Positions 1 through 24,791 of a stretch of 64,000 nt of DNA are shown here, in pieces. Origin of the DNA: Promethearchaeota archaeon (GTDB lineage: Archaea > Asgardarchaeota > Heimdallarchaeia > Hodarchaeales > Hodarchaeaceae); contig JBHLMN010000003.1 of the NCBI GenBank assembly GCA_048938105.1, forward strand, positions 288,001 to 352,000. Reading direction: 5' to 3'. The translations under genes were made by a program, and so were the position numbers. The first letter of the stretch is position 1; the number at the start of each line of letters is the position of its first letter. Below the pieces are notes generated by a model, which made no database searches, was not told where the DNA came from, and saw nothing but the letters and a program-made list of their open reading frames with translations.

Positions 1-1098
1 ATTATTAATGTTGTCTCTGTTCTCATTGTAGTTTATTTTTTCTCTCATGGAAGCCTTGATTTCCTTAGAAGACAGCGTACAAGAATGTTAGGTCCCCATT
101 TTATGGACACAAGTTATACGTCAGCAATTTCTATTGCTTTTAAAACTGGGATCTCTAGAATGAAGAAACATAAATATCAAACAACTATCACTCTTTTAAG
201 TATTTGTCTGTTAACTTTTGCATTAACTCTATTAACGTCTGCAAGTGCTCTTTTTAAGAATAATATTCTTGTTTTAGGATTACCTATTTTTATAGCAATA
301 CTACTAATGATAAATACCTCAGTTACTGTTGTATACTCATCAAAGAGAGAGATTTCTATATTCACATCATTAGGGGTTACCCCAACCCATATTATATCCC
401 TATTCTTAGTAGAATTTCTTGTATCTGCCATTATAGGATCTGTAATTGGTTATTTGGGAGGAGTAACTTTCATTAGAATAGTTTCAACAATTGGGCTTAT
501 TCCAAAAACGTTACCCATCAATTATTCCTCTGGGGCTGTTGTTACTACTTTAGCTTTTAGCATGGTTGGAATGTTCTTGAGTATAATCTATCCACTAAAA
601 ATATCTAGTCGAATGTCTGTACCCTCTCTTAAAAGAACCTGGGTATTGACTACAGTACCAGTAGAAGATGGAACAAAATGGAATATACCGTTACCAGTTG
701 TTACGGCTAGTGAACAAGAAGCTGAAGGAATTATCGTATTTCTAATGGAATTTTTCGTAATATTCAAATCCGAGAGTGTGGGAGGCCCATTTTTTGTGAA
801 TAATATTGATATAAAAAACTTCAAAGGAAAGGCAAAGCTTATAACTGCTACTGTTACTCTAGCGCCATTTGATATGGGAATAAAGCAAACTATGAAATTT
901 TTCACCTTTTTTGATAGAAAACAAGATCATTGGACGTTTGAGATTGAATTAGTCCGCTTGGAGGGCGTATTAATAGCATGGGAAGCCTCAGTCAAACGAT
1001 TTATAGGCAATATTAGAAAGCAGTTACTTATTTGGAAAAGTCTCTCTGAAGAAGAGAAAGTAGTAAAGATTGAACGATTTCAACAAGAATTCTCATAA
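1..1098 (+). CDS. Large FtsX/MacB-like ABC permease, C-terminal part (5' end outside window); paralogue of 13299..17766
   Basis: Frame is open from base 1 (IINVVSVLIVV...). It has the FtsX-type motif KREISIFTSLGVTP..I..LFLVE and several TM helices. It shares MKK.K.RT, VPSxxRxW, SESVGG, APFDMG and IRKQLLIW with the 1377-aa ORF. Confidence 0.85.
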   Translation: MINVVSVLIVVYFFSHGSLDFLRRQRTRMLGPHFMDTSYTSAISIAFKTGISRMKKHKYQTTITLLSICLLTFALTLLTSASALFKNNILVLGLPIFIAILLMINTSVTVVYSSKREISIFTSLGVTPTHIISLFLVEFLVSAIIGSVIGYLGGVTFIRIVSTIGLIPKTLPINYSSGAVVTTLAFSMVGMFLSIIYPLKISSRMSVPSLKRTWVLTTVPVEDGTKWNIPLPVVTASEQEAEGIIVFLMEFFVIFKSESVGGPFFVNNIDIKNFKGKAKLITATVTLAPFDMGIKQTMKFFTFFDRKQDHWTFEIELVRLEGVLIAWEASVKRFIGNIRKQLLIWKSLSEEEKVVKIERFQQEFS

Positions 1099-1144
1099 AT
1101 ATTTCATTAAATCCTTTGAATAATGAGTTAAAAATTAAAAGCAT

Positions 1145-2506
1145 GTGATTTATTTGGCTAACGAACCGAAGATTGTTGTAATTGGAGCAGGAAGTACAAA
1201 TTTTTGTTTTGTAACGTTAAAAGACATAGTAGAAGAGGAAAAACTTCAAAATGCAACGCTCTGTATGGTTGATACTAATGAGCGTAACTTAAATCTGGTT
1301 TCATCTTTGGCTAAGGTGCTAAAAACCCGCTATCAATCTAAAATAGAATTGATCGCTGATATGAATCGAGAAAAGGTATTAGAGGACGCTGATTTTGTGA
1401 TATTGTCCATTGGGGTTGATCGTGAGCAAACGTGGGAAACTGATTTCGAGATAGCAAAAAAATTTGATATTTGGCATTACGCAGAAAATGGCGGCCCAGG
1501 AGCTTTTGGTCATACAGCTAGAAACCTCGCTGTTGTTATGCCAATACTGTATGACATTCATGATTTGGCATCAAACACATGGCTAATAAATTTCACAAAT
1601 CCATTATCCAAAATTCACTACGCAGCAAAAGACTATGCAAAAGTGAATTGTGTAAGCTTTTGCCATCAGTACTGGTATGGCTTTTACATCTTGGGACACA
1701 TACTTACTGATGATTTAGGAATTTGTAAGGATGCAAATTTATCATATCTTGACTATCGAAACAAAGCTTTGAAGGAATATAACGTCTTAGCAGCAGGGTT
1801 GAATCACTTTACTTGGATGTTAGAGGTACGAAGAAAGTCAAATGGTGAAGATCTCTATCCATTAATCCGACAAAAAATAGACAAATTACCACCCACTTAT
1901 GAAGCTTTGACAAGGCATATTTTTAAAATATTTAAACTTCTCCCTGTTCCAGGTGAGACCCATCTTTCTGAATATCTTCCATATACTGCCCAAAAAGAAA
2001 ACTGGGAGAAATATAATCTTTATCCCTTCAATTTTGATGAAAATAGGCAAAATAAAGTCAAAAATTGGCAACTAATAAAAGAAATAATTGAGGGGAAACT
2101 CCAAGTTGAGATATTAAAGCCAGATCAGGCTGAAAGAATTGCAAATTTAATTACAGAAATATATACAGATGCTTCTGCCTTTGAACCTGCATTGAATATT
2201 GAAAATAATGGAGCAATAGCAAATCTACCGACGGATGCGGTAGTTGAAGTTCCATGTTTAGTGAATAAAAAGGGAGGCTTAGGTATCTGTGTCGGTAAAC
2301 TACCAGAAGCAATCGCAACTTTATGCAACAATGAAATTTCGATTGCAAAATTAATTACTAAAGCATCAGTTGAAGGAGATAAAGAAGCTGGGATTCAAGC
2401 ATTCGCATTAGATCCAATGATAAACGATCTTGATTTAGCAGAAAAGTTATTTCATGAATATTTAGAGACATTTAAGGATGTTCTCCCCCAATTTACCGAT
2501 TTGTGA
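1145..2506 (+). CDS. Family 4 glycoside hydrolase (NAD+/Mn2+-dependent, alpha-galactosidase/glucosidase-like)
   Basis: Motifs IVVIGAGS (Rossmann), ENGGPGA, NFTNP, CH, GLNHF, N.GAIANLP.DAVVEVP and A..LDP. TTG at 1154 is a possible alternative start. Confidence 0.9.
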   Translation: MIYLANEPKIVVIGAGSTNFCFVTLKDIVEEEKLQNATLCMVDTNERNLNLVSSLAKVLKTRYQSKIELIADMNREKVLEDADFVILSIGVDREQTWETDFEIAKKFDIWHYAENGGPGAFGHTARNLAVVMPILYDIHDLASNTWLINFTNPLSKIHYAAKDYAKVNCVSFCHQYWYGFYILGHILTDDLGICKDANLSYLDYRNKALKEYNVLAAGLNHFTWMLEVRRKSNGEDLYPLIRQKIDKLPPTYEALTRHIFKIFKLLPVPGETHLSEYLPYTAQKENWEKYNLYPFNFDENRQNKVKNWQLIKEIIEGKLQVEILKPDQAERIANLITEIYTDASAFEPALNIENNGAIANLPTDAVVEVPCLVNKKGGLGICVGKLPEAIATLCNNEISIAKLITKASVEGDKEAGIQAFALDPMINDLDLAEKLFHEYLETFKDVLPQFTDL

Positions 2507-2529
2507 GTTATTACATTATTATTCAAATT

Positions 2530-3465
2530 TCATAAAGGTTCTCTCGAATCAGTTAAACATAAATTGACCAATTCATCTATTTTAGCAGTACCAACACACA
2601 TGACTTTATCAGCACCACCCCAGTATAATTTCAGAGTACCATCATCTTCAGGAACAGCCCCACAGGTAAAAACCACGTTATGTACATACCCAGTCACTTC
2701 CCAAGGATCTTCAGGCTGTAGAATCCATTGATCACCTACACCCAAAACTATAGCAGGATCATCCAACTTATGTAGAGCGACTCCTAAACGATAAACGGAT
2801 CCATCCATAGTAGGGAAAACTCCATGATAGATACTCAACCATCCTTCTTCTGTGCGGATTGGAGGAGCACCAGGACCGATTTTCATTTCATCCCAATGAT
2901 ACATAACTGGTTTCATTACAATACGGGAATCCCCCCAATACTTCAAATCAGAAGAGAAACTTATCCAAATCGACCAGGGACTAATATCTGAATGAGGTCT
3001 ATCTAATTTTACATATCTTCCATTGATCTTTTCAGGGAATAAAACAGTGTTCCGATAATCTGCTTGAGTAATAAAAGCGATCCTTTTTACTGACTCAAAA
3101 TCCTGAGTTTTTGCTAGCCCTATACGAACGCCATGTCTTGAATAAGCACTGTAAGTAATGTAATGAGTATCTTCTATGAAAGTGATGCGAGGATCTTCAA
3201 CTCCAAATTCCTCATATTCTTTGAAAATCCCGTTGTCAGCAGGGATCATAAAAGGTTCTTCTCTAGACGTAAAATTAAATCCATCTTGGCTCTCAGCAAT
3301 ACCAATGATGGACCTCCCATTTTTACGATGCGAGCGGAATAACATTATATATCTAGAATCATGTTTTACGACACCTGCATTATGCACTGTCTCAACAGCA
3401 TAGGGAATATCATTTACTGTTAATATTGGATTCTTTTCATAACGCTTTACAAAATCTCGTTTCAT
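2530..3465 (-). CDS. GH130 beta-mannoside phosphorylase-like protein
   Basis: Motifs NPIL, EDPR, RNTVLFPEKINGRY, KIGPGAPPI, YHGV, NVVF.CG and WGGAD. Confidence 0.9.
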   Translation of the reverse strand: MKRDFVKRYEKNPILTVNDIPYAVETVHNAGVVKHDSRYIMLFRSHRKNGRSIIGIAESQDGFNFTSREEPFMIPADNGIFKEYEEFGVEDPRITFIEDTHYITYSAYSRHGVRIGLAKTQDFESVKRIAFITQADYRNTVLFPEKINGRYVKLDRPHSDISPWSIWISFSSDLKYWGDSRIVMKPVMYHWDEMKIGPGAPPIRTEEGWLSIYHGVFPTMDGSVYRLGVALHKLDDPAIVLGVGDQWILQPEDPWEVTGYVHNVVFTCGAVPEDDGTLKLYWGGADKVMCVGTAKIDELVNLCLTDSREPL

Positions 3466-3563
3466 ATTGCAATCCCTTCAAAGCTTTAATTTGAGAAATC
3501 AATCCTTCATTCAAACTGAGAGTTAGATTAACAGAGAAAATGTATACATAACATTTAAATTTC

Positions 3564-4496
3564 TTAATTCGATCTAATTGTAAGTTTAACCATCTTTTCT
3601 ATCTTACTGCGTGTTTTTGTTGAAGGCTTATCTTTCATATAGAAAATTAAGCAATAAATATCATTCTTCTCTTGATTAGACCATAAATAAGTATCGAAAT
3701 ATTTCTTGCCAATTAGAGCTTTTTTCTTGGATCTTTGAATACTTCGCCAAACTACTATCTTTTTCTTGTAATAAAGTCTTTTGAATTCTACGGGAAGATA
3801 TCGCGATGGTATTCCTGGAAGATTTTCCTTATAGTACTCCCTGAACCATTTAGGCATCTCATCTGGATTGAAGATTTTTTGATCAGCTAATCCAATACGG
3901 TAAGCAAAGAGATCTAGTGTTTCATCTCTAAGATGGAGAAAAGTCAGTCCAATCAAGAACTCTCTTTTGATTAAGTTGCTATTTAGAAATGGAGTGTGGA
4001 TTTGGAGGTTTGGAGCTGACCAGATCGAGAATATACTCTCTGGATGGCAATTGATGTTTGCCATTATCTCCCTAATTCGAGGCTTTTCTTCCGATTTTTT
4101 TGATGTGAGAAACTGAGAAGTACAAATTATTAATCGTTCTGTTTTATTACAGATCCAAACCATTAAATAGCCTTGAACTTTTTCCTTTTCTAATTCCCAG
4201 TATATATATTTTGCATTATGTCCATTTATTTTCTGTGATCCTTCAGTTTTTCTTTTGATTTTTCTATATGACTTTTTTAACGATTTAAAATAATCCTCAA
4301 TAACTGTACTAATTTTGGGAGCTTTCTTGTCAAGCTTAGCCCAACTTAACTCCATTTTTTTTTCTTTAGAATCTCGAAAACCAAAATAACCAGTTTTTTC
4401 TTGAGACTTTTTCCTGTCTTTTTTTTCAAAAAACATAAACCAATTATTTGGAACTTTAACCAGAATATGCTGCCAACCAAGCGTCTGATATTTCAT
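3564..4496 (-). CDS. Hypothetical basic cytoplasmic protein, possible accessory of the FtsX/OPT system
   Basis: 310-aa ORF with no TM segment, Lys-rich. No motif recognised with confidence. Confidence 0.7.
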   Translation of the reverse strand: MKYQTLGWQHILVKVPNNWFMFFEKKDRKKSQEKTGYFGFRDSKEKKMELSWAKLDKKAPKISTVIEDYFKSLKKSYRKIKRKTEGSQKINGHNAKYIYWELEKEKVQGYLMVWICNKTERLIICTSQFLTSKKSEEKPRIREIMANINCHPESIFSIWSAPNLQIHTPFLNSNLIKREFLIGLTFLHLRDETLDLFAYRIGLADQKIFNPDEMPKWFREYYKENLPGIPSRYLPVEFKRLYYKKKIVVWRSIQRSKKKALIGKKYFDTYLWSNQEKNDIYCLIFYMKDKPSTKTRSKIEKMVKLTIRSN

Positions 4497-4566: not shown

Positions 4567-5625
4567 TTGTATATGAAAGTAGCTCGGTTTGAAAGTCCTT
4601 TCAACATTAAAATAAGACAATGCAAAACTCCAACGATAGGAGATAATGATCTACTAATTAATGTAGCTTATTGTGGAATTTGTGGAACAGACATTCACAT
4701 TTATGAAGGTCAACTACCTTTTGTCACGTTCCCAATTGTTCCCGGACACGAATTTTCGGGAACAATAAAAGCTATGGGAGCCAAAGTATCTAATTTTGCG
4801 ATAGGAGAGAAAGTAACAGTCAATCCAAACCTCTCATGCAAAGATCATGGTTATAGTTTCGATGAGTATTGTTATTATTGCAAGAAAAATCGTCCTCATT
4901 TCTGTATTAATTGGGAGGCTATTGGAGTGACAAGGAACGGTGGTTTTTCGGAATTCGTTGTTTGTCCTAGCACTTCTGCATATAAAGTACCCCATAATGT
5001 ATCTCTATCAGAAGCAGCTTTTGTGGAACCAATAGCTTGTTGTTTACATGGTCTTCAAAAAGTAAATATAAATTCTGAAAACACAGTGTTGGTTATCGGG
5101 GCGGGACCAATTGGGTTATTGATGGTGTCCCTAATTAAATCATTATATTGCGCAAAAATCATCGTAAGTGAACCTAATCATTCTCGTAGACGTCTGGCAA
5201 CCCAACTTGGTGCAGATATTACGGTTGATCCAACAGATGAAGTCTTAGAAGATGTAGTAAAAAGAGAAACAGAGAATTTTGGGGTCGATGTGTCGATAGA
5301 GGCAGTTGGATTGACAAAAACCTCACTTGAAGCAATAAAATGTTTAAACAAATGTGGAAAAGCTTTATTATTCGGTGTTTCAAAACATGGAGACACAATT
5401 AAGTTAAATCTCTTTGAATTGTACAGTAAAGAGCTATCGTTATATGGTAGTTTTACCAATCCATATGAAAACGACAAGGCTCTTAAAATTCTAGAGAATA
5501 AGGCAATTCCAGTTTCAACATTAATTTCACACACGCTTCCAATTGATAAGTTGGAAGAAGGACTAAATTTAATAAAAAACAAAACACTAGACGCGAAAAA
5601 GATACTTATACGGATTAAAGAATAA
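4567..5625 (+). CDS. Zinc-dependent MDR-family (sugar-alcohol-type) dehydrogenase
   Basis: Motifs CGICGTD, GHE, a four-Cys structural Zn site, EP.AC and GAGPIG. ATG at 4573 is the likely start. Confidence 0.9.
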   Translation: MYMKVARFESPFNIKIRQCKTPTIGDNDLLINVAYCGICGTDIHIYEGQLPFVTFPIVPGHEFSGTIKAMGAKVSNFAIGEKVTVNPNLSCKDHGYSFDEYCYYCKKNRPHFCINWEAIGVTRNGGFSEFVVCPSTSAYKVPHNVSLSEAAFVEPIACCLHGLQKVNINSENTVLVIGAGPIGLLMVSLIKSLYCAKIIVSEPNHSRRRLATQLGADITVDPTDEVLEDVVKRETENFGVDVSIEAVGLTKTSLEAIKCLNKCGKALLFGVSKHGDTIKLNLFELYSKELSLYGSFTNPYENDKALKILENKAIPVSTLISHTLPIDKLEEGLNLIKNKTLDAKKILIRIKE

Positions 5626-5706: not shown

Positions 5707-6069
5707 CTGACAGATCAGGTAATCCAATGTCCCTGTGGGCAATTTATAGAAGATTATAGTCAATATCAATTACTTTATCTTAAGAAGGAGATGGAAGAGA
5801 TTGATATTCTCTGCCCAAACGATTTTTGTTATCTTAGAGAACTCGGATTCTTAAAATTTTCAATTGATAATTCGGGACACATAAAATTAAATATAGGCCG
5901 ATTTTACGCACCATATGTAACTTGGAATGCCACACGGATGTCAGAAGAGACGATAGTCAAAACATTAAAACAACATCTTATTGAGATCACTGAGAAACAT
6001 GTTTCTTGGGAAAAAGTGAAAGAAGACTTTCTAAAGAAAAAGACTAAACAAACTTCAAAGGAGGCTTGA
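5707..6069 (+). CDS. Small putative Zn-binding protein (CPCG...CPNDFC), probable CTG start
   Basis: The frame of ORF 5791..6069 is open back to TAA at 5701-5703. AAGGTG (5695-5700) lies 6 nt before CTG 5707. The extension adds QCPCG, which pairs with CPNDFC. The stop overlaps the TTG start of the next gene. Confidence 0.7.
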   Translation: MTDQVIQCPCGQFIEDYSQYQLLYLKKEMEEIDILCPNDFCYLRELGFLKFSIDNSGHIKLNIGRFYAPYVTWNATRMSEETIVKTLKQHLIEITEKHVSWEKVKEDFLKKKTKQTSKEA

Positions 6070-6674
6070 AATTGAGTCTAGATCTGCCTGAACCCGAATT
6101 TCCATTCTTGGATGTTTTGTATCTATCGTTTTCTAATATCCGGCGAAGATTTTTCCGTTCTATTATCACTGCTTTAGGAGTAATTCTAGGAATTGCGTTT
6201 ATGGCAGCTCTTCTTACTAACTCTCTTACATTAGGGTTAATGGAAGAAGAATCTGAAGTAGAAGCCTACCAATACTGGTTAGTCGGAATATCATTAGTAG
6301 TTTGTTTTGGTGGTATAACTAATAGCATGTTGATGGCAGTTAATGAGAGAGTTAAAGAAATAGGCGTATATAAATGTATTGGAGGGTTGGATACTCATAT
6401 AATACGATTATTCATTGTAGAAGCTCTTCTTCTGGGCATTCTAGGAGGATCTATAGGAGGCATTGTGGGTATAAGCATAGGAATAGCTATAAACCTTAAT
6501 CGTTTTACTTGGGATCAAATATCCTCTGTTCTATTGCTAAACAGTTTTTCACTTGTTCTTTTGTTTGTTTTTTGTTTAGGAATCTCAATGGTTTTAACAG
6601 CACTAGCAACATACCTTCCAGCTCGAAGAGCAGCGAATTTATCCCCAGCAGAAGCCTTAAGATATGAAAATTGA
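6066..6674 (+). CDS. Minimal FtsX-like ABC permease (4 TM, almost no ectodomain)
   Basis: Motifs RSIITALGVILGIA, NSMLMAVNERVKEIGVYKCIG, LFIVEA and YLPARRAANLSPAEALRYE. Confidence 0.9.
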   Translation: MKLSLDLPEPEFPFLDVLYLSFSNIRRRFFRSIITALGVILGIAFMAALLTNSLTLGLMEEESEVEAYQYWLVGISLVVCFGGITNSMLMAVNERVKEIGVYKCIGGLDTHIIRLFIVEALLLGILGGSIGGIVGISIGIAINLNRFTWDQISSVLLLNSFSLVLLFVFCLGISMVLTALATYLPARRAANLSPAEALRYEN

Positions 6675-6677
6675 ACT

Positions 6678-7412
6678 GTGTTGGTATTTATGAGTCTTGA
6701 AGAATATGTCGTTGAAATCACTGATGTATTTAAGGAGTATTCATTGGGGAAGGTTGTAATTCCAGCTCTTCAAGGAATTTCCTTCAAAATAAAACGAGAG
6801 GAATATGTTTCTATAATGGGACCCTCAGGGAGTGGAAAAAGTACACTTTTTAATGTGATCGGAGGGTTAGACATAGTTACAAGTGGAGAAATATTTATTG
6901 ACCAAGTAGACATAGCAGAGCTAGATGCTTATGAATTAGCTTGGCTTCGTAATCGTAAAATTGGATATATCTTTCAAACTTTTAACTTACTGTTAGCATT
7001 CACCGCTCAAGAAAATGTTGAGACTCCTATGGTATTTGCGGGAGTACCAAGAGAAGAAAGAAGAAAAAGGTCAAGAGAGATTTTGAGACTAGTGGGTCTA
7101 GAGCATAGAGCAAAAAACAAACCAGGTCAACTTTCAGGTGGACAACAACAAAGAGTAGCAATAGCACGAGCACTAGCAAACAATCCGGCAATTGTTCTTG
7201 CAGATGAACCGACTGGAAACTTGGATTTAGCAACCGGTTTAGAAATCATTGGATTACTAAAGAAACTAAATGTAGAAGAAGGAACAACAATCGTTACCGC
7301 AACACATGATTTGAAAATGATTAATATTAGTGATAGAATCATATGGATCCGTGATGGGAAAGTGGATAGGATTGAAGATCGTGCGGATGTCCATATTAGC
7401 TTAAAATCATGA
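6678..7412 (+). CDS. ABC ATPase, MacB/LolD (FtsE-like) subfamily
   Basis: Walker [32 protein letters not shown], Walker [11 protein letters not shown] and THD. ATG at 6690 is the likely start. Confidence 0.95.
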   Translation: MLVFMSLEEYVVEITDVFKEYSLGKVVIPALQGISFKIKREEYVSIMGPSGSGKSTLFNVIGGLDIVTSGEIFIDQVDIAELDAYELAWLRNRKIGYIFQTFNLLLAFTAQENVETPMVFAGVPREERRKRSREILRLVGLEHRAKNKPGQLSGGQQQRVAIARALANNPAIVLADEPTGNLDLATGLEIIGLLKKLNVEEGTTIVTATHDLKMINISDRIIWIRDGKVDRIEDRADVHISLKS

Positions 7413-7413: not shown

Positions 7414-8160
7414 GTGGTGATACAGATGGCAGAGGAAATTACTATAAGATTGGAGGATGTCTGGAAGACATACATCATAGGAACTGAGGAAGTCAATGCG
7501 TTACAGGGTGTTTCATTAGATATTCCCCAAGGTGAATTTCACGTAATTATGGGGCCTTCTGGATCAGGGAAAACTACGTTTCTAAACATGGTTGGAGCGT
7601 TAGATGTTCCCTCAAAAGGAGAAGTTTATTTTGAGAATGTTCCACTTTCGAGTTTAAATAAAAAACAATTAGCATCATTACGATCGTATAAAATTGGTTT
7701 TATTTTCCAAACTTTTAATCTTGTACCAGTCATAACTGCTCTTGAAAATGTTCAACTACCATTAATATTTCAGAAATATCCGAGAGAGGAAAGAAGAAAA
7801 AGAGCAGAAGAAATACTCAAACGAGTCGGCTTGGGTGATCGAATGCAACATACACCAGATGAACTTTCTGGTGGACAACAACAACGTGTGGCAATAGCAC
7901 GAGCTTTAGCGGGAGAGCCAAGCCTTATCCTCGCTGATGAACCTACAGGTAATTTGGACCTATCGACTGGTTTTCACATTGTAGAATTGTTGAGAGAATT
8001 AAGTCAAGAAACTGGTATCACTGTAATTAATAGTACACACGACTTAAAGCTTATCGATATCGCTGATAGAATTTCTTGGTTAAGAGATGGGGAAATTACT
8101 CGAACTCAAAAACGATTAGATGTCTTTATCACTGAAGACGATGTACATATACCCCAATAA
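7414..8160 (+). CDS. Second ABC ATPase, MacB/LolD subfamily
   Basis: [33 protein letters not shown] and THD. A GGTGAT SD precedes ATG 7426. Confidence 0.95.
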
Positions 8161-8269: not shown

Positions 8270-8449
8270 ATGGAAATAACAGATATTCTAGCTGCTATTT
8301 TTGTTGTTCTTGCATTAGTTATAGCAATATTCAGTACTAACATACGAAACGCGCTTAATAATGATTTACTTCTATTCATCATCGAAGCGGGCCTATTAAT
8401 AGGAGTCATTGCGCTTGCTGTTATTGGTCAGACAATTTCAAGAAGCTAG
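8270..8449 (+). CDS. 59-aa two-TM membrane peptide (not in ORF track)
   Basis: GTGAGG SD, then ATG 8270. Translation is MEITDILAAIFVVLALVIAIFSTNIRNALNNDLLLFIIEAGLLIGVIALAVIGQTISRS*. It has two hydrophobic helices and is co-oriented with the ATPase genes. Confidence 0.7.
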   Translation: MEITDILAAIFVVLALVIAIFSTNIRNALNNDLLLFIIEAGLLIGVIALAVIGQTISRS

Positions 8450-13298: not shown

Positions 13299-16200
13299 AT
13301 GAGACAAATTAAGATACTCATCTTTTTTTTTTTCCTTCATTCTAATCTCTACTACTTTATTTACACTGTATAATACTGGAATCACACACCGAATCGACTC
13401 TGAAAATCAAATAGCTAAGCTCACAAGTGTTTCACCATCAAATAGCAACATATTAACAAGTATCAATGATTTTCCAGGATTCAAGCAATTAAGTGAGCAA
13501 ATTAATGAAACATACTTTGATAATATTCTGAGTCATATCCATAATTTTTCTAGTTTTGGGAGCCGTGTTACAGGGTATTCTGGGTATAAGCAATCTATTA
13601 ACTATATTCAGAATTTCTTTATTAGTCAAGGTTTGGTAAACGTATCTACCATTCCATACTCCCTATTAGTTCCGTTAGATCTTGGTACAAAGATAGAAAT
13701 CAATGGACAAAATTATACAGCACATAGTTTCACACCAAATTCTGTTCACGCATGTAAAATTCCCTCTACTGGATTATCTGGGAGCTTAATCTATGGAGGA
13801 TTAGGTTCCTATTCGGAAATGGATCGTAAAATAATAGATGGCTCAATTGTTGTGCTTGAATTTAACTCTCAAGATAATTGGATAAAAGCAGCCAGTTTAG
13901 GAGCAAAAGGAGTCATTTTCTTACCACCAAATAACACTGATCGATTTGAAGCTGAAGTTAAATCCATCGATATTCCCCTCAATTTTCCCCGTATTTATAT
14001 TAATGATACTACGACAGCAAAGATCATCAAACAGATAAGTAAGCAAACAAACCAAATGGCCACCATATATTCCAACATAGAGTGGACTTTAGTTTATGCA
14101 GAGAATGTAATGGGGTTATTACCTGGTTTGGATGATGATATCATAATTATTTCTGCTCATTTTGATTCATCTTCTGTAGTTCCAGCTGTTGCCCCTGGGG
14201 CTGACGAAGCTTGTGGTATTGCTACATTGTTTGAACTTATTCGTATTATGAAAGACAATAACATTGTTCCGCAAAAAACAATCATGTTTTTGGCACTTTC
14301 TGGTCATAATCAAGCAGCAGCAGGAGCAAGGGAATTTGTCTATCAGAATTATAAATTATTGAATGTTGATTCTGGAATTAAACTCTTCATTTCTCTAGAT
14401 CTCTCTGTTACAAATAATAAAATTGGAATAAATCCATATGGTTATTTATACCAGTTTAAATTGCAATATACTACTGTAAATCGGTTGATTGAACGTATTC
14501 AAGATGTAGGTGAGGGCTTTCTACAGAGTTATTCAACAACTATTCAAGAGGAAACAGGATTTTCTTTTGAAGTGAAATCTTACTGCAACAGACAAGAGTT
14601 TAAAGATATCGCTCCAATAACTTTTCTAGGTGATCAAGAGCCATTTGTTGCTTCGAATGTGATAGGACTCTCTCTGTTTACTACGGAATCACATCGATTA
14701 CGATTCAATACTCCCATTGATTTCCCTAAATATACACAATCAGAAAAAGAACATCTAAAATCCCAGGTTATCTACTCTATATGCGCATTATCTAAGTTAG
14801 TTATTGAAGAGGCCCTTGGTGAGAAGCTTGATCTTCAAAATAAAGATTTTTCGTTAAGACATGGCAGTCATGTTGGTTTTGGAATCATTGAAGGTCATTG
14901 TAAAGAATATAATGAAACCATAGCATGGCTTACGAATGTTCCTAATGCACTTATTCGTGTGAGATCGCGTAACCTCAGGGATGATACCTATGGGGAATAT
15001 TCATACATTACGAAAGCTGATGACGAAGGATTTTATCAGGTCAGAGGGGTCTCTTCATCTCAACCTGATTATCCACTACAATTTGTTGTGGAAGCTTTTG
15101 TATTTGATTCTAAAGGCCAATTAATCAAATCAATTAATCTTGGCCCACGAGGGCAGTACTTTAGAAGTGCAAATCGACTCACTAGTCGAACAATAACGAT
15201 CAACCCCACTGTCTTTGATTGCGGTACAGTCACATTTTTTGAAGTTCTTCACCCTTATACCCAAGTGGCTTCAGCTGAATTATTGAACTACCAGATTATA
15301 GATCCAGATACTCGAACCCCTTTCTTTTCATACGGTTATACAGGTTTGAGATCAGTTAGTTTAGTATTTCTCGCACCTAATACCTCATCTGTTATGGTAG
15401 GCCGATTTCCTGATGGTGTCATCGGGATTTATGCAACAAATTCTAGTGTAGACACATTACGAGGAAATGGATACAAAGTCAAAGGAGGCGAAACCAAAAA
15501 TCTTGGAATATCAGCTTATACTACTGCTCGAGATTTCCAATCTATGACAAAAACCTACATAGACTTGTATACATCATATAATATATACGATGCTTTAGCT
15601 GATGATGCTTATTCAAGAGCAAATAGCCTCATAAAAACAGCAAATGACTTGAAAAACAATTTAAAATATTCAGAGTCAATCGTTTTAATCAAAGAAGTAC
15701 AAACATGGTCATATGATGCATTTAAGCAAGCTAGAAAAGTTATTGAAGATGGGACTTCTACTACAATATTTTTTGCTATTCTACTTATCCCATTTGCCTT
15801 TGCTTTATCCTCCTTACTTTTTAATTTTGAAAGTGGTATTAAACGTATTTCGGCTGCTAGTATTATATATGGAATAACCTTTGGTTTTTTCTACCTAATA
15901 CATCCTGGGATGCATCTTTCAAAGAATATAGCAATTATAATTCTAGGAGTGATTGCTTTAATTTTCGTTTTTCCTGCATTGTACATGATATATCAAGAAG
16001 GATATGACTTTTTAAAGAGTCTACGCATTAAATTAGTAGGAGCTCATTTTGTTGACACTTCTCGGACATCCACTATCCTTATTGCTATGAGTACAGGTAT
16101 TTCAAGGATGAAGAAACGAAAAGGAAGAACAATTATTGCTCTTTCAGGTATAGTCCTCATAACCTTCTCATTAACTCTCTTTACATCTGCAAGCACTCAA

Positions 16201-17766
16201 GTAGGCGTCTATTCCAGTGGAATAAACAGAGAAACTCCTTATAATGGAGTTTATTTTAGAACGAAAGATTGGAATTCCCCGCTTTCAAATCAATTACTTG
16301 AAACTCTCGAAGTTCAAAATGGTAATATTTCCATGATTTCTTCGCGATGGTGGCTCTATCCTACTTCAGATGAACCAAATGGATACGTTAATATCGCATC
16401 TACAAAGAGTGACCTTAATTGGCAAGGATCAGCTATATTAGGATTAACCCCTGAAGAACCCAATTTTCAACCCATCATACCAATACTTTCAGCTGGAAGA
16501 TGGTTTAATAATTCAAACAATATGGAATGCATTCTCTTTGACTCCATAAGTGATAAATTGGATGTCTCCATTAATGACACAGTAAGTTGGACTGGGATTG
16601 AGTTCAAGGTTATAGGTATAATTGATGCCAATGAATTTGATAAGCTCAAAGATTTTGATGACGAGGAAATAACACCAAAAAACAATCTTGTACCTTCTCC
16701 TAGTGCTCACTTACGAGCAGATGAAACCTTCATTCTTCCAGCGCAAACTGCTAAGTCATTTGGTGCAGCACTGTATTCAATTTCCATTTTAATAGATCAT
16801 TCAGCAGCTTTAGAACTCGCAGACACGACTTCTACTACTTATGGCCGGTTTCTGGAGATTAGAGTAGGTTACGAAAATGAAGTATCTTTACATAGAAGAA
16901 TAACTCAAAGCCTCGGTCAAGGATTTGTTGAATTAGGAATTCCTTTGGGTATCGCAGTCCTCCTCATGATAAATACTTCAATAAGTACTGTCTATGAATC
17001 AAGGAAAGAAATAAATACGTTTACTTCATTAGGTTTAGCTCCATTCCACATCGCTGGTCTTTTCCTAGCAGAATTTTTAGTCTACGCAATAATTGGTTCT
17101 GTAATCGGATATTTAGGTGGTATTACTTCTGCTGTTGTACTTTCAGCTTTAGGAATATTTCCTGAATCATTAGCAATTAATTACTCCTCTGGATCCGTAG
17201 TAAATGCATTAAGTTTTGGAATTATTGGTATTCTTCTTAGTACGGTATATCCTCTTAGAATTTCTGCGAAAATGTCAGTTCCTTCTGTAAGGAGAGCATG
17301 GGAGCTTACAACATCTCCTGAGGAGAGCGGAGAGAACTGGAATATTCCTCTCCCATTTGTTGCAAGCACAGAACAGGAATCTGAAGGTATCCTTGAGTTT
17401 TTAAGGGAATTCTTTGAAATTTATGAATCTGAAAGCGTTGGCGGGACTTTCTTTGCTCAAAATATCACTTTAAAAGAAACAAACGTTGAAAGAAAAGAAA
17501 AACACCTATCAGCAGTGGTAACCCTTGCTCCATTTGACATGGGATTAAAACAGACTTTTGACTTATTTACGTATCTTGATGAGATCAAATATAGATGGGT
17601 CTTCGAGATTAATCTTAAACGTTTAGAGGGAATATTATCAGCTTGGGAAACATCAGTCAGACGCTTTATCGATAGTATTCGAAAGCAACTACTTATTTGG
17701 AGAAATCTTTCCAAAGATGAGAAGGCATTAAAGGCTGAACAATATAGATCAAAATCAGTAAAATAA
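13299..17766 (+). CDS. Giant FtsX/MacB-like permease with N-terminal M28/PA-like ectodomain; one-base frameshift in T11 tract (13323-13333)
   Basis: AAGGTG SD and ATG 13299 (frame 3) join the long frame-1 ORF (track 13633..17766) if one T is removed. This gives 1488 aa beginning MRQIKILIFFFSFILIS. Motifs include GSRVTG, a PA-like A..LGAKGVIF, SAHFDS, PGADE and the FtsX motif RKEINTFTSLGLAP. Confidence 0.85.
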
Positions 17767-17782: not shown

Positions 17783-19696
17783 ATGGTAGGTGACAATGAT
17801 AGCCCTAATAGCAATTCTGAGGAGATTATATCAACAGAAGAATATAGCTCTGGATTAACATGGCGAGTTGGCCTCGCAATCGTTTATTCAGCTATAATAA
17901 TTCAACCAGCTGCAATATATTTGTACTTCATTACCACAAATTGGTGGTACATTGGAGCGATAAGTACTACAACTATTGTTCTTTTTGCTGTACTTGCTAA
18001 ATACTCTGATAATCCCCTGTCAAAGCAAGAAGTCTTTATCATGATCAATGTTACAACAACGGCTGCGGGTATGGAGGCAATTGTCGCGTTAGTCTATAAT
18101 TATTATCTAAAGCATCATCCTATCACTCAGTCAACAATAATAAACGGTTCAAGATTAACCGATTTAATTCCTGATTGGTTTGCACCAGATTTTTTTGGTC
18201 CAATTCAAACGTTATTTGTCCCTGTATTCATCCTCCCTCTTGCTTTAATAATACTAAGTGCATTTTTAGCCAAAGCTACAGACATTTCACTAGGTATAAT
18301 ATTCAATTATCTCTATACTAAAGTCGAAGTTTTGCCATTTCCAACTGCAGAAGTAGAAGCAGAGAGAGCAAAGAGCCTCACATGGGAAGATAAGAGAAAA
18401 TTACAGGTTTTCTCAATAAGCGCTTTTATCGCAAGTATAATTGGATTTATTCTATACTTTTTTCCACTAGTTTTTGGATTTACGATTATTCCAATTCCTT
18501 GGTTTGACTTTAACCAAGCAATTGAAGGAATTCTACCAGGTGGATCCTTTGGAATTGCAGTAGATCTTATCTACTTTGGATTCGGTTTTATATTGCCTAT
18601 GCATATCGTGATTAGTATTTTAATAGGTTCCATCTTTATTAGTCTAATTGGAAATCCATTACTAGTAGCTACGGGCAATTTTCCACGATGGGAAAAAGGT
18701 TTATCTCTTATTGACACCTTTAATTATTCTCAACTTGATTTTTGGCTTCCATGGGGTATTTCTTTCTTAATTTGTGCCTCATTAATCCCAGTCTTGCGTA
18801 ATCCAAGAATATTTGTTAGAACGTTAAAAGATCTAAGAAAATTGAGCCAGGGAAAAGGAGAAGAGATTGAGGAAGGGTCTCCTCGGTTGAGTATTTTACT
18901 TAGTTTCTTCCTTCTCGGTACAATTGGTTCTGTCGTAATTGCAGTTTTACTCGTTCCTGATCTTTCTTTACAATTCATAATTATTTTACTTATTCTGACT
19001 GTTGGATGGAGTTTTTTTGGTTCCCTAGCAATGGCTTATGCACTTGGAATAACTGCAAATCTCCCGAATATACTCTACATTAAAGAATCAGCGTTTGTTT
19101 TTGCTAATGCTCCAGTAGGTGGAGCCATTTGGTTTGTCCCCTCATTAGTTATATCACAAGGAGGAGCTAGTTGGGTTGCAACATTTAAAACCTCTGATTT
19201 AACGTTTACAAAACGGGGAAGCTTAATTAAGGCACACATTGGAGCCTCACTTGTAGCTTGGTTTGTAGGCATATTTTGGGTTTCTGCTCTTTTATCAGTC
19301 GCTCAAGTACCCTCTGTCATCTTTCCTGTCCCATTTTGGCCTTTAGATGTAGGAAGAACAATTGCTTTCGTTTCAAATCCCTCAGTAGTTCTCAATCCTG
19401 TTGTTTTAGGTGTTGTCTTTATTATAACCCTAATCCTTTATCTAATTGAATGGTTTACACCTATACCTATATCCGTCATATCTATAGCAGTAGGTACAAC
19501 CAATCTGTATGCAATTCCGTATGCATTTACAACTTTCTTAGGAGCCTTAGTTGCAAGATTACTGAAAAACAGAATGGAATATTGGGAAACCGATCGTGCA
19601 ATAATAGTGGCTGGTTTTGGAACTGGACTAGGGATTGTTATCTCATTAGCCACATTCATATCATTAATTATGAATACTATCGCCTTACCCTATTAA
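17783..19696 (+). CDS. OPT-superfamily-like polytopic membrane protein
   Basis: Many TM segments. Motifs SGLTWR, LSKQE, IPDWFAP, E.LPFP and IVAGFGTG. It follows the giant permease directly and has a GAGG SD. Confidence 0.75.
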   Translation: MVGDNDSPNSNSEEIISTEEYSSGLTWRVGLAIVYSAIIIQPAAIYLYFITTNWWYIGAISTTTIVLFAVLAKYSDNPLSKQEVFIMINVTTTAAGMEAIVALVYNYYLKHHPITQSTIINGSRLTDLIPDWFAPDFFGPIQTLFVPVFILPLALIILSAFLAKATDISLGIIFNYLYTKVEVLPFPTAEVEAERAKSLTWEDKRKLQVFSISAFIASIIGFILYFFPLVFGFTIIPIPWFDFNQAIEGILPGGSFGIAVDLIYFGFGFILPMHIVISILIGSIFISLIGNPLLVATGNFPRWEKGLSLIDTFNYSQLDFWLPWGISFLICASLIPVLRNPRIFVRTLKDLRKLSQGKGEEIEEGSPRLSILLSFFLLGTIGSVVIAVLLVPDLSLQFIIILLILTVGWSFFGSLAMAYALGITANLPNILYIKESAFVFANAPVGGAIWFVPSLVISQGGASWVATFKTSDLTFTKRGSLIKAHIGASLVAWFVGIFWVSALLSVAQVPSVIFPVPFWPLDVGRTIAFVSNPSVVLNPVVLGVVFIITLILYLIEWFTPIPISVISIAVGTTNLYAIPYAFTTFLGALVARLLKNRMEYWETDRAIIVAGFGTGLGIVISLATFISLIMNTIALPY

Positions 19697-19706
19697 AAAA
19701 AAATAA

Positions 19707-20387
19707 TTACAGCCTTCTTTTCTGTATGTCGGTATTTCTATGTATATGCAGGGAAATAGTTTCTAAACCTTCAATAATTGTATCCAAAACTTTATAGTAC
19801 TTACCTTTAGAGGTAATAGCTCCAAGATACTTCTCTAAATTAATATTCCATATTAGTTCAGTAGGATGATGAAATACTTTATAAAATTCCGAAGTATACT
19901 CTTTCAAGTCTCTTGTAACAATTGGCTGTGAGAATAATGTTATTAATAAACTATCAGGAATAATAGTTGAGAATAATTTCTGAAGGACACTATCCTGATT
20001 AAGAATCTCAGCCAATGCATTGTCTATAATTAAGTCTGGGATTTCAGCCTTTAAATGTTTTAAAAGGGGATTTGAAATAAAATGGAATTTTTTCCTAATG
20101 AAACCAATACGAGAAATTTGACATTCATGACCTTTTAATTTCTGGAATAGGGGAATATCTTTATCCGAAAAGTTAATTTGATCTAATATGGTGATAGCTA
20201 CGATAAATTGCCATGATCTATCAGCAGAGACCCACAATTGTTTAGGTTTAATTAGTAAATAATTGAAATGATATTCCTCTTTAGGAATTAATAAACTGCC
20301 GCCTACATCTGAAAGCTCCCATTCTCCGTACTTCTTTAAATATTTTGCAAACGGGGGAAGTAGCATATCAGTGTAAGATTTTACCAT
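19707..20387 (-). CDS. Hypothetical protein
   Basis: 226-aa ORF filling the gap, convergent with the OPT-like gene. No recognised motif. Confidence 0.6.
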   Translation of the reverse strand: MVKSYTDMLLPPFAKYLKKYGEWELSDVGGSLLIPKEEYHFNYLLIKPKQLWVSADRSWQFIVAITILDQINFSDKDIPLFQKLKGHECQISRIGFIRKKFHFISNPLLKHLKAEIPDLIIDNALAEILNQDSVLQKLFSTIIPDSLLITLFSQPIVTRDLKEYTSEFYKVFHHPTELIWNINLEKYLGAITSKGKYYKVLDTIIEGLETISLHIHRNTDIQKRRL

Positions 20388-20691: not shown

Positions 20692-22938
20692 ATGAAAAAA
20701 AGAGTATTTTTGTTAATAGTTGTATTCCTATTTCTAAGTGTTCAAATTATAACTTCTAGTAAAGCACCACAGATAAATACATATCAAGATATACTAAAAT
20801 CACAAAGTACAGAAACTAATGCAGTAGAAATAATGGTAATGGTTAACTTGACGTGTATTGCACCTAGTGGTCATGATCTGCCAGGAAACACCCCTATAGT
20901 TGTTAATCTATCTACTATTGCAAAAGTAATTCCTGAAACAGTTGATGCTTTCGGAATGAAAACAACTGATAAGGCTGATGATATAAAATGGGATTCAGCT
21001 TATGTTACTTATAATAACGACCTGATACCAGCTCAAGTTGATGATATAGATATCTATAAAGGCTACTCCGATGGAGATGAGTTGGTTTTCGAACTACCAG
21101 AAGATATTGCACTCACTAACGAAAATAATATTACTTTTTCAATATTTTTTGGCACAAAAGGATTAGATCTACCACCTCCCTATTTTCCTGAGACTTGTGA
21201 TGTCTATATTTACCCAAAAATAGATGAAATTAACGAAAGATACCCTGATATGTTAGGTCCCAAAGATGGTGCCTATTATATGGAAAATGGAATCATTCAA
21301 GCATGCGCATTAGTGGAGGCTGCTTGGAGTAGTGGTGGATTATACGAATTATCAGTTCTAGATGACCAAGGTGAATCCCAATGGGATGCAATAAAACAAA
21401 GATATAAAGTATCATTTGATATGTGGAAATGGTCACGTTTCGCATTAATTGAGCAATTTATTTCAAAAAATCAATTTGCCACAACTTTTCCCTTTAAATT
21501 AGAACATTTTATCTCTGGACCCGTTCGTGCACAATTCCAAATGCAGTCTAAATCTGATTACGGGAAAAGTGGCACTCCATGGGGTAATATTCCAAACGTA
21601 TATGGTCTTGTAACGTATGACCTTTATGCGAACCAACCTTATCTTGATTATACACTTGAAATCGTCGGACCTGATGCAAACAAGCATCCCTCACTAGTTA
21701 TTCAGTATCAAAATCGTGAGTGGGGTGGAAAACCAGGAAGCCCATATAAATCCATTTACGTACCAGGCCAAGGCTGGCTGGAGCGTAATCCAAATGACAT
21801 ACTAACTCATAAAGTTTTAGAAGCAGGTTTCAATCAATCATGGTATCTTGAAGGATTATATGGAAACCAGAAAATACTTCCCTCATCATTTGCTGGGCCT
21901 GATGATGACCAACTTGGATATGGATTTATCTTTGATGATACAGGTTTTGCCAATATCACCTGGGATGCGGGTTCAGAAGCTGTTCTTAGCTGGTATGACG
22001 CCTGTGAATTCCCCTTTCGTACGCGATACTGTCCTTATGATGTTAGCATCTTAGCGGGACAAGATAGAATAAGCTATGTGAAAGATCAATATCAAGCATG
22101 GCTGCGACCTGATCCTGAATTTTCACTTACTGCTTCTCTTGTTACCCCAGCTGAGATCCCCTTTGATTATATTTTCATTACAAAACCTGATATTATATTT
22201 GATAATGTCACAGATCTTCTACAAATAGTAAATATTAGTGCTTATTCAACGGTACTAACAGATTTTCTCACTGGGACTACCCCAGACGTTAGTGCGACCT
22301 ACAAGGTGTTGACAGAAAGAAAACAGATAGAAACAGGTATAAGTGGGAGTTTAACTTGGAAAGATAGCAGTGAAACATGGGAAGCTTTAGATGTAGATGT
22401 GAGCTCGATCAATTTAAATGAATCACATGTTGTTGTTGCTTATTTTACGGTCAATGACATTTCCGGTCGAAGTGCTATTTCGGAACACTTCATTGAGGGC
22501 ATACTGCCGGATCTCACAGGACCAATCATCTCTGATGTAACTAGAAGCCCAGCTGATGTTGTACGATTTACTGATTCTGTGAATGTTACTGCTTCTGTGG
22601 AGGATGAGGAAGGAGAGGTAACTTTAGTTTACCTTTTTTATTCAAACGGAAGTACGTGGTATAATCTTACAATGAATCAAAGTTTTGGGTTCTATAGAGG
22701 CACGATTCCACCTCAGAAATCTGCCACAACGGTTAAATTCAAAATAGGGGCATATGATGATGCCCCTCTCGCAAATTATAATGAATCCGAAATATTCGAG
22801 TATTTTGTTTCAATAGAATATATACAAGGACAAGGATTACTCCCACTTATAGGAATTTCTGGAATAATAGTTGTAGCAATCGTCATTGCGTTAAAAAGTG
22901 GAGCCTTACATCGAGAGAAGTATGACCAAGTTGAATGA
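20692..22938 (+). CDS. Secreted, C-terminally anchored protein with DUF4861-like motifs and an Ig-like stalk
   Basis: Signal peptide MKKRVFLLIVV. Motifs PAQVDD...DELVFE and GPVRA. Stalk segment D.TGPII...V.VTASV.D, then a C-terminal TM helix. Confidence 0.7.
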   Translation: MKKRVFLLIVVFLFLSVQIITSSKAPQINTYQDILKSQSTETNAVEIMVMVNLTCIAPSGHDLPGNTPIVVNLSTIAKVIPETVDAFGMKTTDKADDIKWDSAYVTYNNDLIPAQVDDIDIYKGYSDGDELVFELPEDIALTNENNITFSIFFGTKGLDLPPPYFPETCDVYIYPKIDEINERYPDMLGPKDGAYYMENGIIQACALVEAAWSSGGLYELSVLDDQGESQWDAIKQRYKVSFDMWKWSRFALIEQFISKNQFATTFPFKLEHFISGPVRAQFQMQSKSDYGKSGTPWGNIPNVYGLVTYDLYANQPYLDYTLEIVGPDANKHPSLVIQYQNREWGGKPGSPYKSIYVPGQGWLERNPNDILTHKVLEAGFNQSWYLEGLYGNQKILPSSFAGPDDDQLGYGFIFDDTGFANITWDAGSEAVLSWYDACEFPFRTRYCPYDVSILAGQDRISYVKDQYQAWLRPDPEFSLTASLVTPAEIPFDYIFITKPDIIFDNVTDLLQIVNISAYSTVLTDFLTGTTPDVSATYKVLTERKQIETGISGSLTWKDSSETWEALDVDVSSINLNESHVVVAYFTVNDISGRSAISEHFIEGILPDLTGPIISDVTRSPADVVRFTDSVNVTASVEDEEGEVTLVYLFYSNGSTWYNLTMNQSFGFYRGTIPPQKSATTVKFKIGAYDDAPLANYNESEIFEYFVSIEYIQGQGLLPLIGISGIIVVAIVIALKSGALHREKYDQVE

Positions 22939-23225
22939 AATTTCATCTTAAATTATTCCATTTTATCCTATTAATCATATAAGTGAAGTAAGAATAGAGT
23001 ACTCCATTCATCACCGGTTTTTTCGAATAATAGAAGAATTATTTCAGTTTTCATGATAAACACTTTTTCATATCACCCCATGTTTGGATCGAAGTACGTT
23101 ATCTTTAAAAGGACAATTTCTGACTTCGAATAAAATGTTAGAAAAATACTTCTGAAGTATATATTCTGACCCAGAAAGAGAAAACGCTAAAATATAGCTC
23201 TATATATATATATTGAGGTATCAAT

Positions 23226-24791
23226 ATGATAAAGAAAAGAACATTGTTTTTGACTCTAAGTTTGTTTGTTCTATTATTCCTAATGAATTCGATGACATCA
23301 CTTAAAGCGACACCTCCACAATTACGAATATCTGCAGCCACAAAAGTAGCAACGATTACTGTAACTGGTGGATCTGGAGGTCTAGTGGCAAAGACCCCAA
23401 TTATTATTGATGAATCAGAGTTTGATGCCTATTCAATAGCTCTAGCAACAGCTATTGTTAAAGATGGAACTACAGAGTTGAAGACTCAATATGATTCAGA
23501 ACTCGGAGAACTCGTATTTCAAATACCAAGTGCAATTGCAGCAGATGGAACCAAGACATTTGATTTATATGGAGAAGCAACAGGTACAACTAATGGTCAA
23601 ACAACGACAATTAAAGCAGCTGAAGGGAATTATAGTGAAACATATAGTGATTGGTTACCATCCTCACTCACAGACAATGGATGGATGATTAACGCCACTC
23701 ATATGTCCCCAAACGTTGTTAATGTTGGTAATGTTGTCTGGGTAGAAACAGATTGGGTAATTTTATGCTTCCAACTACAAGCACAATGGAGACAGGGTTC
23801 TCTTAAACATATATACCTAAAAGATGAAGGCTGGGATCTCCAAATGGCTAAATTCAATGCCTCTCAACATTGGCAATTTACTTGGAGTGGTTGGCCCAGT
23901 GACCATAATTATGGCTGGGAAAAAGAGTACGATAACGGATATGGTCTGGATGATGCCACAATTGTTAAAGCTGGACCAGTACGAGCTGTAGTACAAACAG
24001 TCAGCTCAACTGGATGGCGTAGTCCTTGGGGCGCCCCCTACTACAATCTTAATCAAAGCTTAACATGGTGTATCTATAACGACTTCACTGGTTGGTCTCA
24101 GCACTTTGAGTTGACAAGCGACAATACTACTCTTCTAAATCAGGCGTTTACAAACTTCACAAAGATCAATTATGGAGAACCAATGCAATGGCAACATAAA
24201 CTACGCGATCAGGGTTTCCAGGGTGGTGGTTATAACTTATCCGCAGGATGGCCCCACAACTTCACCAATATTTATACTCCTGGACAACCCATTGGCTATA
24301 GAGGAGCTGGTATGACGCTCTCTAGCTTAAATGTCTCCTTATTAACCGAACCTTACCTGGGCATGTACAATTCGTCTGGATATGGATATATGTACCACTG
24401 GGGAACTCCTGTCGAAAATGTTACACAAATAAACTGGTCTGGTGAAGAAGTCGCCATTCATAGCTCACTCAATGCTTTCCCCGAAGAAGGACTTATGCGC
24501 TATTGTGCGCCTTTCAGTAATTATGCAGGAAACATCACGGAACACATAGATGCAGAAAATGATCGCTGGACAGCAACCTATACGATATCAACTGCTGCTC
24601 ATGTCCCTGAAACTACTCCTACTGCAACTAAAACCGCAACTAAAACCGCAACTGCAACTAAAACCGCAACTAAGACAAAAACCAAAACTAAAACCACAAC
24701 CACAACTGGCGGTGCGCCTGGATTTGGCCTCCTCACCTCAATCATAGTTGTTGCTGCTGCAGCAGCAATAGTCCATCGAAGAAGGAAATAA
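23226..24791 (+). CDS. Cell-surface protein with Thr/Lys linker and PGF-type sorting tail; paralogue of 20692..22938
   Basis: Signal peptide. Motifs TQYD..GELVFQ and GPVRA. Many NxS/T sequons. Ends with TATK repeats, PGF, a TM helix and HRRRK. TATA run and GAGG SD lie upstream. Confidence 0.8.
   Translation: MIKKRTLFLTLSLFVLLFLMNSMTSLKATPPQLRISAATKVATITVTGGSGGLVAKTPIIIDESEFDAYSIALATAIVKDGTTELKTQYDSELGELVFQIPSAIAADGTKTFDLYGEATGTTNGQTTTIKAAEGNYSETYSDWLPSSLTDNGWMINATHMSPNVVNVGNVVWVETDWVILCFQLQAQWRQGSLKHIYLKDEGWDLQMAKFNASQHWQFTWSGWPSDHNYGWEKEYDNGYGLDDATIVKAGPVRAVVQTVSSTGWRSPWGAPYYNLNQSLTWCIYNDFTGWSQHFELTSDNTTLLNQAFTNFTKINYGEPMQWQHKLRDQGFQGGGYNLSAGWPHNFTNIYTPGQPIGYRGAGMTLSSLNVSLLTEPYLGMYNSSGYGYMYHWGTPVENVTQINWSGEEVAIHSSLNAFPEEGLMRYCAPFSNYAGNITEHIDAENDRWTATYTISTAAHVPETTPTATKTATKTATATKTATKTKTKTKTTTTTGGAPGFGLLTSIIVVAAAAAIVHRRRK
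24621..24707 (+). repeat. Coding tandem repeat (GCAACTAAAACC-type units; TATK/TK linker)
   Basis: Visible 12- and 6-bp periodic repeats encoding TATKTATKTATATKTATKTKTKTKTTTTT. Confidence 0.9.

Follow-up and report, generated by a model that had tools for sequence, protein, structure and literature searches.

The first 24,791 positions of a 64,000-nucleotide stretch from a Promethearchaeota archaeon of the order Hodarchaeales encode a membrane system in which a type VII ATP-binding cassette (ABC) motor is genetically tied to two carriers of the oligopeptide transporter (OPT) fold. The stretch, here called the window, covers positions 288001-352000 of contig C14 (JBHLMN010000003.1) in the metagenome-assembled genome G000 (5.85 Mb, 35% GC); gene coordinates are relative to the window, with negative positions lying before its start. 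The nearest protein matches of the genome carry Hodarchaeales or Heimdallarchaeota labels. The system is real, widespread and undescribed, and it unites known folds in a combination without a described counterpart. The sequence evidence inclines us, at somewhat better than even confidence, to see in it a modular, ATP-dependent nutrient importer.

This view rests in part on the constancy with which the parts travel together. Eight Hodarchaeales relatives keep the gene order PqqD, hypW, Cys4, mini-FtsX, two ATPases, GH127-like, DUF6785, permB (the giant permease), OPT2 and h226. Within the genus, OPT2 was found in genomes bearing permB and was not found in seven genomes without it. Beyond Hodarchaeales, the parts also stay together in Bathyarchaeia, Thermoprotei and Desulfobacterota, an outcome that bears out the co-occurrence profiling across archaea and bacteria proposed in a first-pass annotation of the window. 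The Desulfobacterota core consists of mini-FtsX, an ATPase, the giant permease, DUF6785 and OPT2, often followed by hypW and PqqD, and DUF6785 and OPT2 lie downstream of the giant gene at 53 of the 57 loci that have enough downstream DNA. Giant permease, OPT2 and DUF6785 are adjacent in many differing orders in archaea and bacteria, at about 25% identity.

Copy numbers distinguish one motor from many carriers. DUF6785 was found in 43 of the 251 genomes of the phylum that holds Bathyarchaeia and Thermoprotei. The Bathyarchaeia genome G364 encodes 21 DUF6785 proteins, two OPT2, two giants and one shorter permease without M28, and its motor genes (one each of mini-FtsX, ATPase 1, ATPase 2 and Cys4) are dispersed over the genome; one of the giants, a 1421-aa paralogue (L201:542-4807), was detected by the N-terminal profile only and not by the FtsX C-terminal profile. 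In G348, 37 matches to DUF6785, fragments among them, accompany two OPT2 and one motor, and in the Thermoprotei genome G472 a single motor accompanies eight giant/OPT2/DUF6785 trios. In Staphylothermus marinus and S. hellenicus each part occurs once, in one cluster. Counts of OPT2 and giant permease are equal in four genomes (8:8, 2:2, 1:1 and 1:1), and in Hodarchaeales the count of the Cys4 motor gene equals that of modules. One motor with many scattered specificity subunits is the layout of group II energy-coupling factor (ECF) importers, where one energising module is shared by many specificity subunits; TonB-ExbBD with many SusC proteins is a comparable shared-energiser layout. This single motor with many exchangeable subunits is the best evidence that motor and carriers work together. 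The likeness to group II ECF importers (EcfAA'T plus S components) extends to the one energiser, often with two different ATPases, but there is no homology to EcfT or S components, the carriers are OPT-fold proteins of 650-700 aa and the motor is of type VII, so that the comparison is one of analogy only.

The motor is built on the FtsX fold. PF02687 is matched by all three permeases of the first-pass annotation (permA, E 1e-12; mini-FtsX, E 3e-17; permB, E 2e-9), and Pfam together with a transmembrane (TM) scan places the 4-TM FtsX membrane domain in each. Mini-FtsX (6066..6674, + strand) consists of four TM segments without an extracellular domain and is the single-copy motor subunit. It is followed on the same strand by ATPase 1 (6678..7412), whose Thermoproteota orthologues are 65-71% identical, and ATPase 2 (7414..8160); both have Walker A, Q-loop, LSGGQ and Walker B intact and belong to the MacB/LolD clade, as had been read from the letters. 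Between its TM1 and TM2, permB carries a periplasmic core domain (MacB_PCD match and model), which mini-FtsX and permA lack. The archaeal motor operon also includes the Cys4 protein (5707..6069, + strand; CxC...CxxxxC), annotated earlier as a Zn-finger protein, for which a non-canonical CTG start at 5707-5709 is probable; the first CxC pair is included only if translation starts there.

The giant permease permB (13299..17766, + strand; main open reading frame (ORF) 13303..17766) matches M28 and MacB_PCD in addition to FtsX, and its predicted model has a pLDDT of 90 and a pTM of 0.86. Pfam and the model together yield a PA-M28 pseudo-peptidase, beta domains, a helical stalk, extra TM segments and an FtsX transmembrane domain with its periplasmic core, followed by a family-specific C-terminal domain. 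The zinc and catalytic set of M28 peptidases (HxD, D, EE, D/E and a final His) is lacking across 36 permB homologues, in which EE is replaced by GH or GK, the last His is gone and the first His is mostly Y or F. An active M28 peptidase is ruled out by the loss of the catalytic Glu pair and final His. In this respect permB resembles M28 pseudo-peptidase receptors such as the transferrin receptor and nicastrin, which share the PA-M28 fold without catalytic residues, but it is fused to an FtsX permease. Neither presenilin nor GPI-transamidase partners accompany it, and a link to gamma-secretase or GPI transamidase was rejected on that account, the nicastrin match reaching only E 0.012. No copy of the giant permease was found on plasmids.

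The type VII ABC systems (MacB, LolCDE, FtsEX, HrtBA and BceAB) share with the present system the LolD/MacB-type ATPases, the 4-TM FtsX fold and the periplasmic core of permB, and the probable asymmetric membrane dimer recalls LolCE. Unlike them, the present system has no MacA/TolC, LolA or EnvC; permB carries a fused PA-M28 pseudo-peptidase, extra TM segments and a C-terminal cytoplasmic domain; mini-FtsX and permA are devoid of the periplasmic core; and the system is linked to OPT-fold proteins in a context that points to import.

The start of permB is unusual in its own right. A T11 run (13323..13333, + strand) causes a frameshift, so that the ATG at 13299 and the main ORF differ in frame by one base. 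A run of T10-11 occurs at the permB 5' end in 9 of the 12 copies examined, the window copy included, and three of the 12 are out of frame. Of the 2332 long ORFs in the genome, permB alone has a run of at least T10 no more than 240 bp from the stop that precedes it; the genome as a whole contains just 10 A/T runs that reach 11 or more. Phase variation, transcriptional slippage and an assembly error are all possible explanations.

The two carriers flank permB. The upstream one (11097..13280, + strand) is DUF6785 plus DUF6784 by Pfam and represents the expanded, probably substrate-specific subunit, while OPT2 (17783..19696, + strand) is of low copy number and tracks the giant permease. The AlphaFold2 model of OPT2 (pLDDT 86) was matched by Foldseek to barley YS1 (PDB 7WSR; E 6e-11, TM-score 0.69), and the two carriers are homologous over their full length (hhalign, 99.7%), so that DUF6785 was assigned the OPT/YS1 fold through profile homology to OPT2. 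The earlier description of an OPT-like pair is thus borne out, although both proteins fall below the curated Pfam OPT cut-off (12.3 and 20.4 bits vs 25.8). Barley YS1 is a dimeric, proton-coupled elevator carrier (PMC9691689). The present pair differs from it in having only 15% identity and two different protomers, in being encoded beside an ABC motor, and in the apparent lack of the proton-site aspartates (HvYS1 D446, D490 and D494) from both carriers, at positions placed by motif and not by alignment of YS1; a Glu close to the acidic site of YS1 is conserved in archaeal DUF6785 proteins. By gene context, the pair does not look like stand-alone secondary carriers, being tied to the giant permease. 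Some stand-alone OPTs of Asgard genomes (L156-L166) are about 800-930 aa long and also without the YS1 aspartates, and L153 is a stand-alone OPT of this genome. Weak matches to the OPT2 profile in G078 and G134 proved to be such proteins and were rejected as OPT2; those in G082 and G133 are probably of the same kind.

Neighbouring genes bear on substrate and direction. Among the 65 listed neighbours of DUF6785 genes in G364 are five glycosidases (GH3, two GH38, GH29 and GH4), three DegT, three Gfo/Idh/MocA, three URO-D-like and two MttB proteins. Among the families listed, glycosidases and DegT/Gfo proteins together account for 11/65 near DUF6785 vs 0/50 in control regions, which hold housekeeping families (Fisher p ~0.001); for glycosidases alone p is 0.054. 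The G364 copies (L187-L204) also adjoin corrinoid-protein genes, and the URO-D-like, MttB and corrinoid neighbours suggest uptake of methylated sugars or amines. The second copy in this genome, on contig C49, and the Staphylothermus copies lie amid GH57 or glucodextranase-like genes, that of S. marinus F1 (L220-L221, at Smar_1399/1400) with three GH57 genes on one side and glycogen synthase on the other. A third, peptide-type module of Hodarchaeales (L133:1180-16515; also L134, L136 and L145) has this motor together with a single OPT-like protein, an FtsX permease of 579 aa, four TldD/PmbA proteins and two to four M28 peptidases. Cargo thus varies by module, with mannoside and GH127-like enzymes here, GH57 alpha-glucan enzymes elsewhere and TldD/M28 peptidases in the third, whose peptidases beside the motor point to peptides as the substrate. 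The peptide-type module may also hint at the origin of the M28-FtsX fusion.

Many Desulfobacterota loci have a cluster of GT28, GT4, phosphatase and deacetylase genes upstream. In Sinorhizobium meliloti the GT28/GT4 genes of that cluster are flanked by an Opp-type importer with a solute-binding protein (SBP), with no machine gene; the rhizobial SBP was not found in five Desulfobacterota genomes (a single query, with no positive control). Rhizobia (L227:3482-16814) and Desulfobacterota (L063-L127) have in common a GT28-GT4-GT28 cluster that lies near an ABC exporter. Since cargo changes from module to module and an Opp-type importer stands beside the rhizobial glycosyltransferase cluster, import is likely, and nutrient import with varied substrates would best fit all four neighbourhood contexts. 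The first-pass annotation had asked about adjacency to carbohydrate-active enzymes (CAZymes), which is seen in the glycan-type archaeal modules and around G364 DUF6785 genes; in Desulfobacterota the adjoining genes are glycosyltransferases of biosynthetic type. The family is not confined to glycans, the peptidase module using the same motor.

A working order of events can be proposed from these data. Surface hydrolases and DUF4861 proteins would cut and hold the polymer, here probably a mannoside-containing glycan, and the dead M28 domain of permB would bind the fragments. Mini-FtsX and the FtsX half of permB would form an asymmetric type VII membrane dimer powered by both ATPases. The membrane domains of type VII ABCs lack a channel and act by transmitting motion (PMC5985334), and the OPT fold supplies a path; for this reason the stroke would be handed on to a DUF6785/OPT2 heterodimer of the YS1 elevator fold, which it would drive or gate and which would carry the substrate inward. 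DUF6785 would be the exchangeable specificity subunit, one motor serving many as in group II ECF importers. PqqD, hypW, h226 and Cys4 may be cytoplasmic couplers or receivers, and the cytoplasmic GH130, GH127-like protein and dehydrogenase would process the imported product.

Import as such, whether through an ATP-driven or an ion-driven carrier, is what we regard as probable; that ATP drives the OPT carrier itself is close to an even call. An alternative that we consider rather unlikely keeps the importer and makes the OPT pair ion-driven, with the type VII motor acting only outside, where it would move the M28 receptor so that substrate is stripped off or delivered, or gate the carrier, in the manner of FtsEX or LolCDE. 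It agrees with the mechanotransmission rule for type VII ABCs (PMC5985334), with the proton coupling of YS1 (PMC9691689) and with the conserved Glu of archaeal DUF6785, and the neighbourhood and copy-number data apply to it equally. However, the peptide module keeps motor and OPT protein though its short permease has no M28 outer domain, OPT2 appears to be without both YS1 aspartates, and several conserved cytoplasmic parts would suggest coupling from the inner side. Several observations weigh against ATP-driven import itself: every characterised type VII system does its work outside the membrane, and not one is an importer (PMC5985334); the apparent loss of the YS1 aspartates does not set the two carriers apart, as some stand-alone Asgard OPTs lack them too; the neighbour enrichment comes from one genome, with families grouped post hoc among the neighbours listed; in Desulfobacterota the adjoining glycosyltransferases are biosynthetic; the rhizobial comparison involves a single locus; and at four Desulfobacterota loci the giant gene has no OPT pair close by.

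The usual roles of type VII ABCs (PMC5985334) would also suit a system for export or envelope building, which moves a cell-made glycoconjugate or glycolipid out, or handles surface proteins, with the CAZymes as bystanders of sugar-rich stretches. The biosynthetic cluster upstream of many Desulfobacterota loci agrees with it, as do the PMT-like gene beside the C49 copy and the glycogen synthase beside the Staphylothermus copy. We judge it improbable, given that the 21-37 scattered DUF6785 paralogues of 2-Mb genomes adjoin catabolic enzymes, that a peptidase module has the same motor, that presence within one genus is patchy and that an SBP importer stands beside the same cluster in S. meliloti. 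More improbable still is that a type VII ABC and stand-alone OPT carriers are two independent systems, merely co-regulated. Anderson et al. took Smar_1400 for a stand-alone secondary peptide carrier (PMC2678158), motor genes are dispersed in Bathyarchaeia and stand-alone OPTs are common in Asgard genomes, but this reading has to contend with the adjacency of giant, OPT2 and DUF6785 across two domains, the matched numbers of OPT2 and giant, and the agreement of motor copies with modules in Hodarchaeales. The boldest form of ATP-driven import is held only tentatively, at a shade under even confidence: a new class of primary importer, with a type VII ABC motor mechanically driving elevator-type OPT carriers inside the membrane and dozens of exchangeable DUF6785 proteins per cell, which would be a main uptake route for glycans and peptides in Bathyarchaeia, Thermoprotei, Hodarchaeales and several bacterial phyla, with switching by a poly-T phase-variation tract possible in Hodarchaeales.

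As to the claim that all listed parts form one complex, co-occurrence in two domains, copy ratios and neighbourhoods sustain the type VII ABC and OPT pair as one uptake system, and not the whole list as a fixed unit. Surf1 (20692..22938, + strand), a membrane-anchored DUF4861-like protein, and surf2 (23226..24791, + strand), with a Thr-rich PGF-type tail, are paralogues (hhalign, 99.1%), as had been supposed. DUF4861 (PF16153) is matched by four of seven surf2 orthologues (best E 1e-13), the surf2 of the window itself being without a match; the DUF4861 member BT3233 is required for glycosaminoglycan use (PMC8121099). The cytoplasmic GH127-like (alpha/alpha)-barrel protein (8457..10853, - strand) matches, at a TM-score of 0.66, a structural cluster with PF07944 (GH127-type) in 34% of its members, and is a paralogue of the surface-anchored protein at 28123..29994 (- strand). 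PDB sequence searches gave nothing significant for this GH127-like pair, surf1, surf2, the product of 24907..26877 or OPT2. At least surf1 is kept in seven of the eight Hodarchaeales relatives, and the window's cargo set recurs with carriers in archaeal contig L131 and a Thermoprotei genome (L207), but surface-protein, GH127-like and Cys4 genes occur at 0/82 Desulfobacterota loci. By this distribution, surf1, surf2 and the GH127-like enzyme are module-specific and lie outside the universal core. Such packaging of a transporter with surface glycan proteins and hydrolases, DUF4861 included, is shared with Bacteroidetes polysaccharide utilization loci (SusC/D, BT3233); unlike these, the present system has no TonB-dependent transporter and its host is single-membrane.

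The third permease, permA, also falls outside the unit. The 1..1098 fragment (+ strand) is only the 3' portion of an M28-FtsX gene (1252 aa) that begins 2660 bp before the window and is preceded directly by the PqqD/RRE gene of the system (-3222..-2761). PermA is 55-59% identical to permB, was not found in G009 (a single contig, 96% complete) and lies away from the other machine genes in most relatives, for which reason a fixed unit of three permeases was rejected. Compared with eight relatives, permA, the GH4 gene (1145..2506, + strand) and the first GH130 gene (2530..3465, - strand) are inserted at this position only in this genome, GH4 adjoining the module in only one relative. Every gene listed by the first-pass annotation exists, GH4, GH130 and the Zn-dependent polyol/sugar dehydrogenase (4567..5625, + strand; cargo in the modules of five of the eight relatives) included, with limits amended for permA, the ATG at 13299 and the Cys4 start. 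Two conserved cytoplasmic proteins had been left off its list: hypW (3564..4496, - strand; fold weakly PsbP/DcrB-like), a core accessory in archaea and bacteria, and h226 (19707..20387, - strand) of the archaeal systems. The 59-aa 2-TM peptide (8270..8449, + strand) has a comparable ORF at the equivalent position in two relatives.

Module genes continue beyond position 24791 with an anchored surface protein that travels with the module (24907..26877, - strand) and a conserved cargo GH130 (27126..28031, - strand) closest to beta-1,2-mannobiose phosphorylase. From 30099 to 64000 the window is a large CAZyme island, with GH20 by Pfam match and, by inspection, two GH2, a third GH130, a ROK/glucosamine-6-P deaminase fusion, GH116, two GH94 and GH3. 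An absence of SBP-dependent importers from the first 25 kb had been remarked on, and no solute-binding protein or BPD_transp matches occur among those genes; SBP-type ABC sets, read from translations, lie about 25-33 kb upstream and, as an Opp-type importer, inside the island at 53586-59952. A helical protein of 1029 aa whose C-terminus bears a RING-like Cys cluster is encoded about 6342-3253 bp upstream of the window and lies near the module in three genomes. The second complete copy of the system (C49:152013-170199; L002/L003), amid alpha-glucan genes, includes a 991-aa permease without M28, a treble-clef TM protein and a PMT-glucodextranase fusion. Scans for Sigma-70 promoters and terminators gave matches at chance level only.

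In the published literature, no description was found of the system, of DUF6785, or of the DUF6784/FtsX/PqqD/M28 combination. The only mention is of Smar_1400, read as a stand-alone peptide OPT (PMC2678158); by position it is the OPT2 orthologue, because the adjoining DUF6785 gene is Smar_1399. Cultured S. marinus F1 has one complete copy of the system (Smar_1399 and neighbours), so the question is directly testable.

We know of no OPT carrier that uses an ATP motor. If the proposal is true, a type VII ABC and an OPT carrier joined for import would constitute a new transport principle. A role would follow for DUF6785, a family that fills 21-37 genes in some 2-Mb Bathyarchaeia genomes, and the system may account for the uptake of polymer fragments by archaea abundant in sediments, an Asgard lineage among them.

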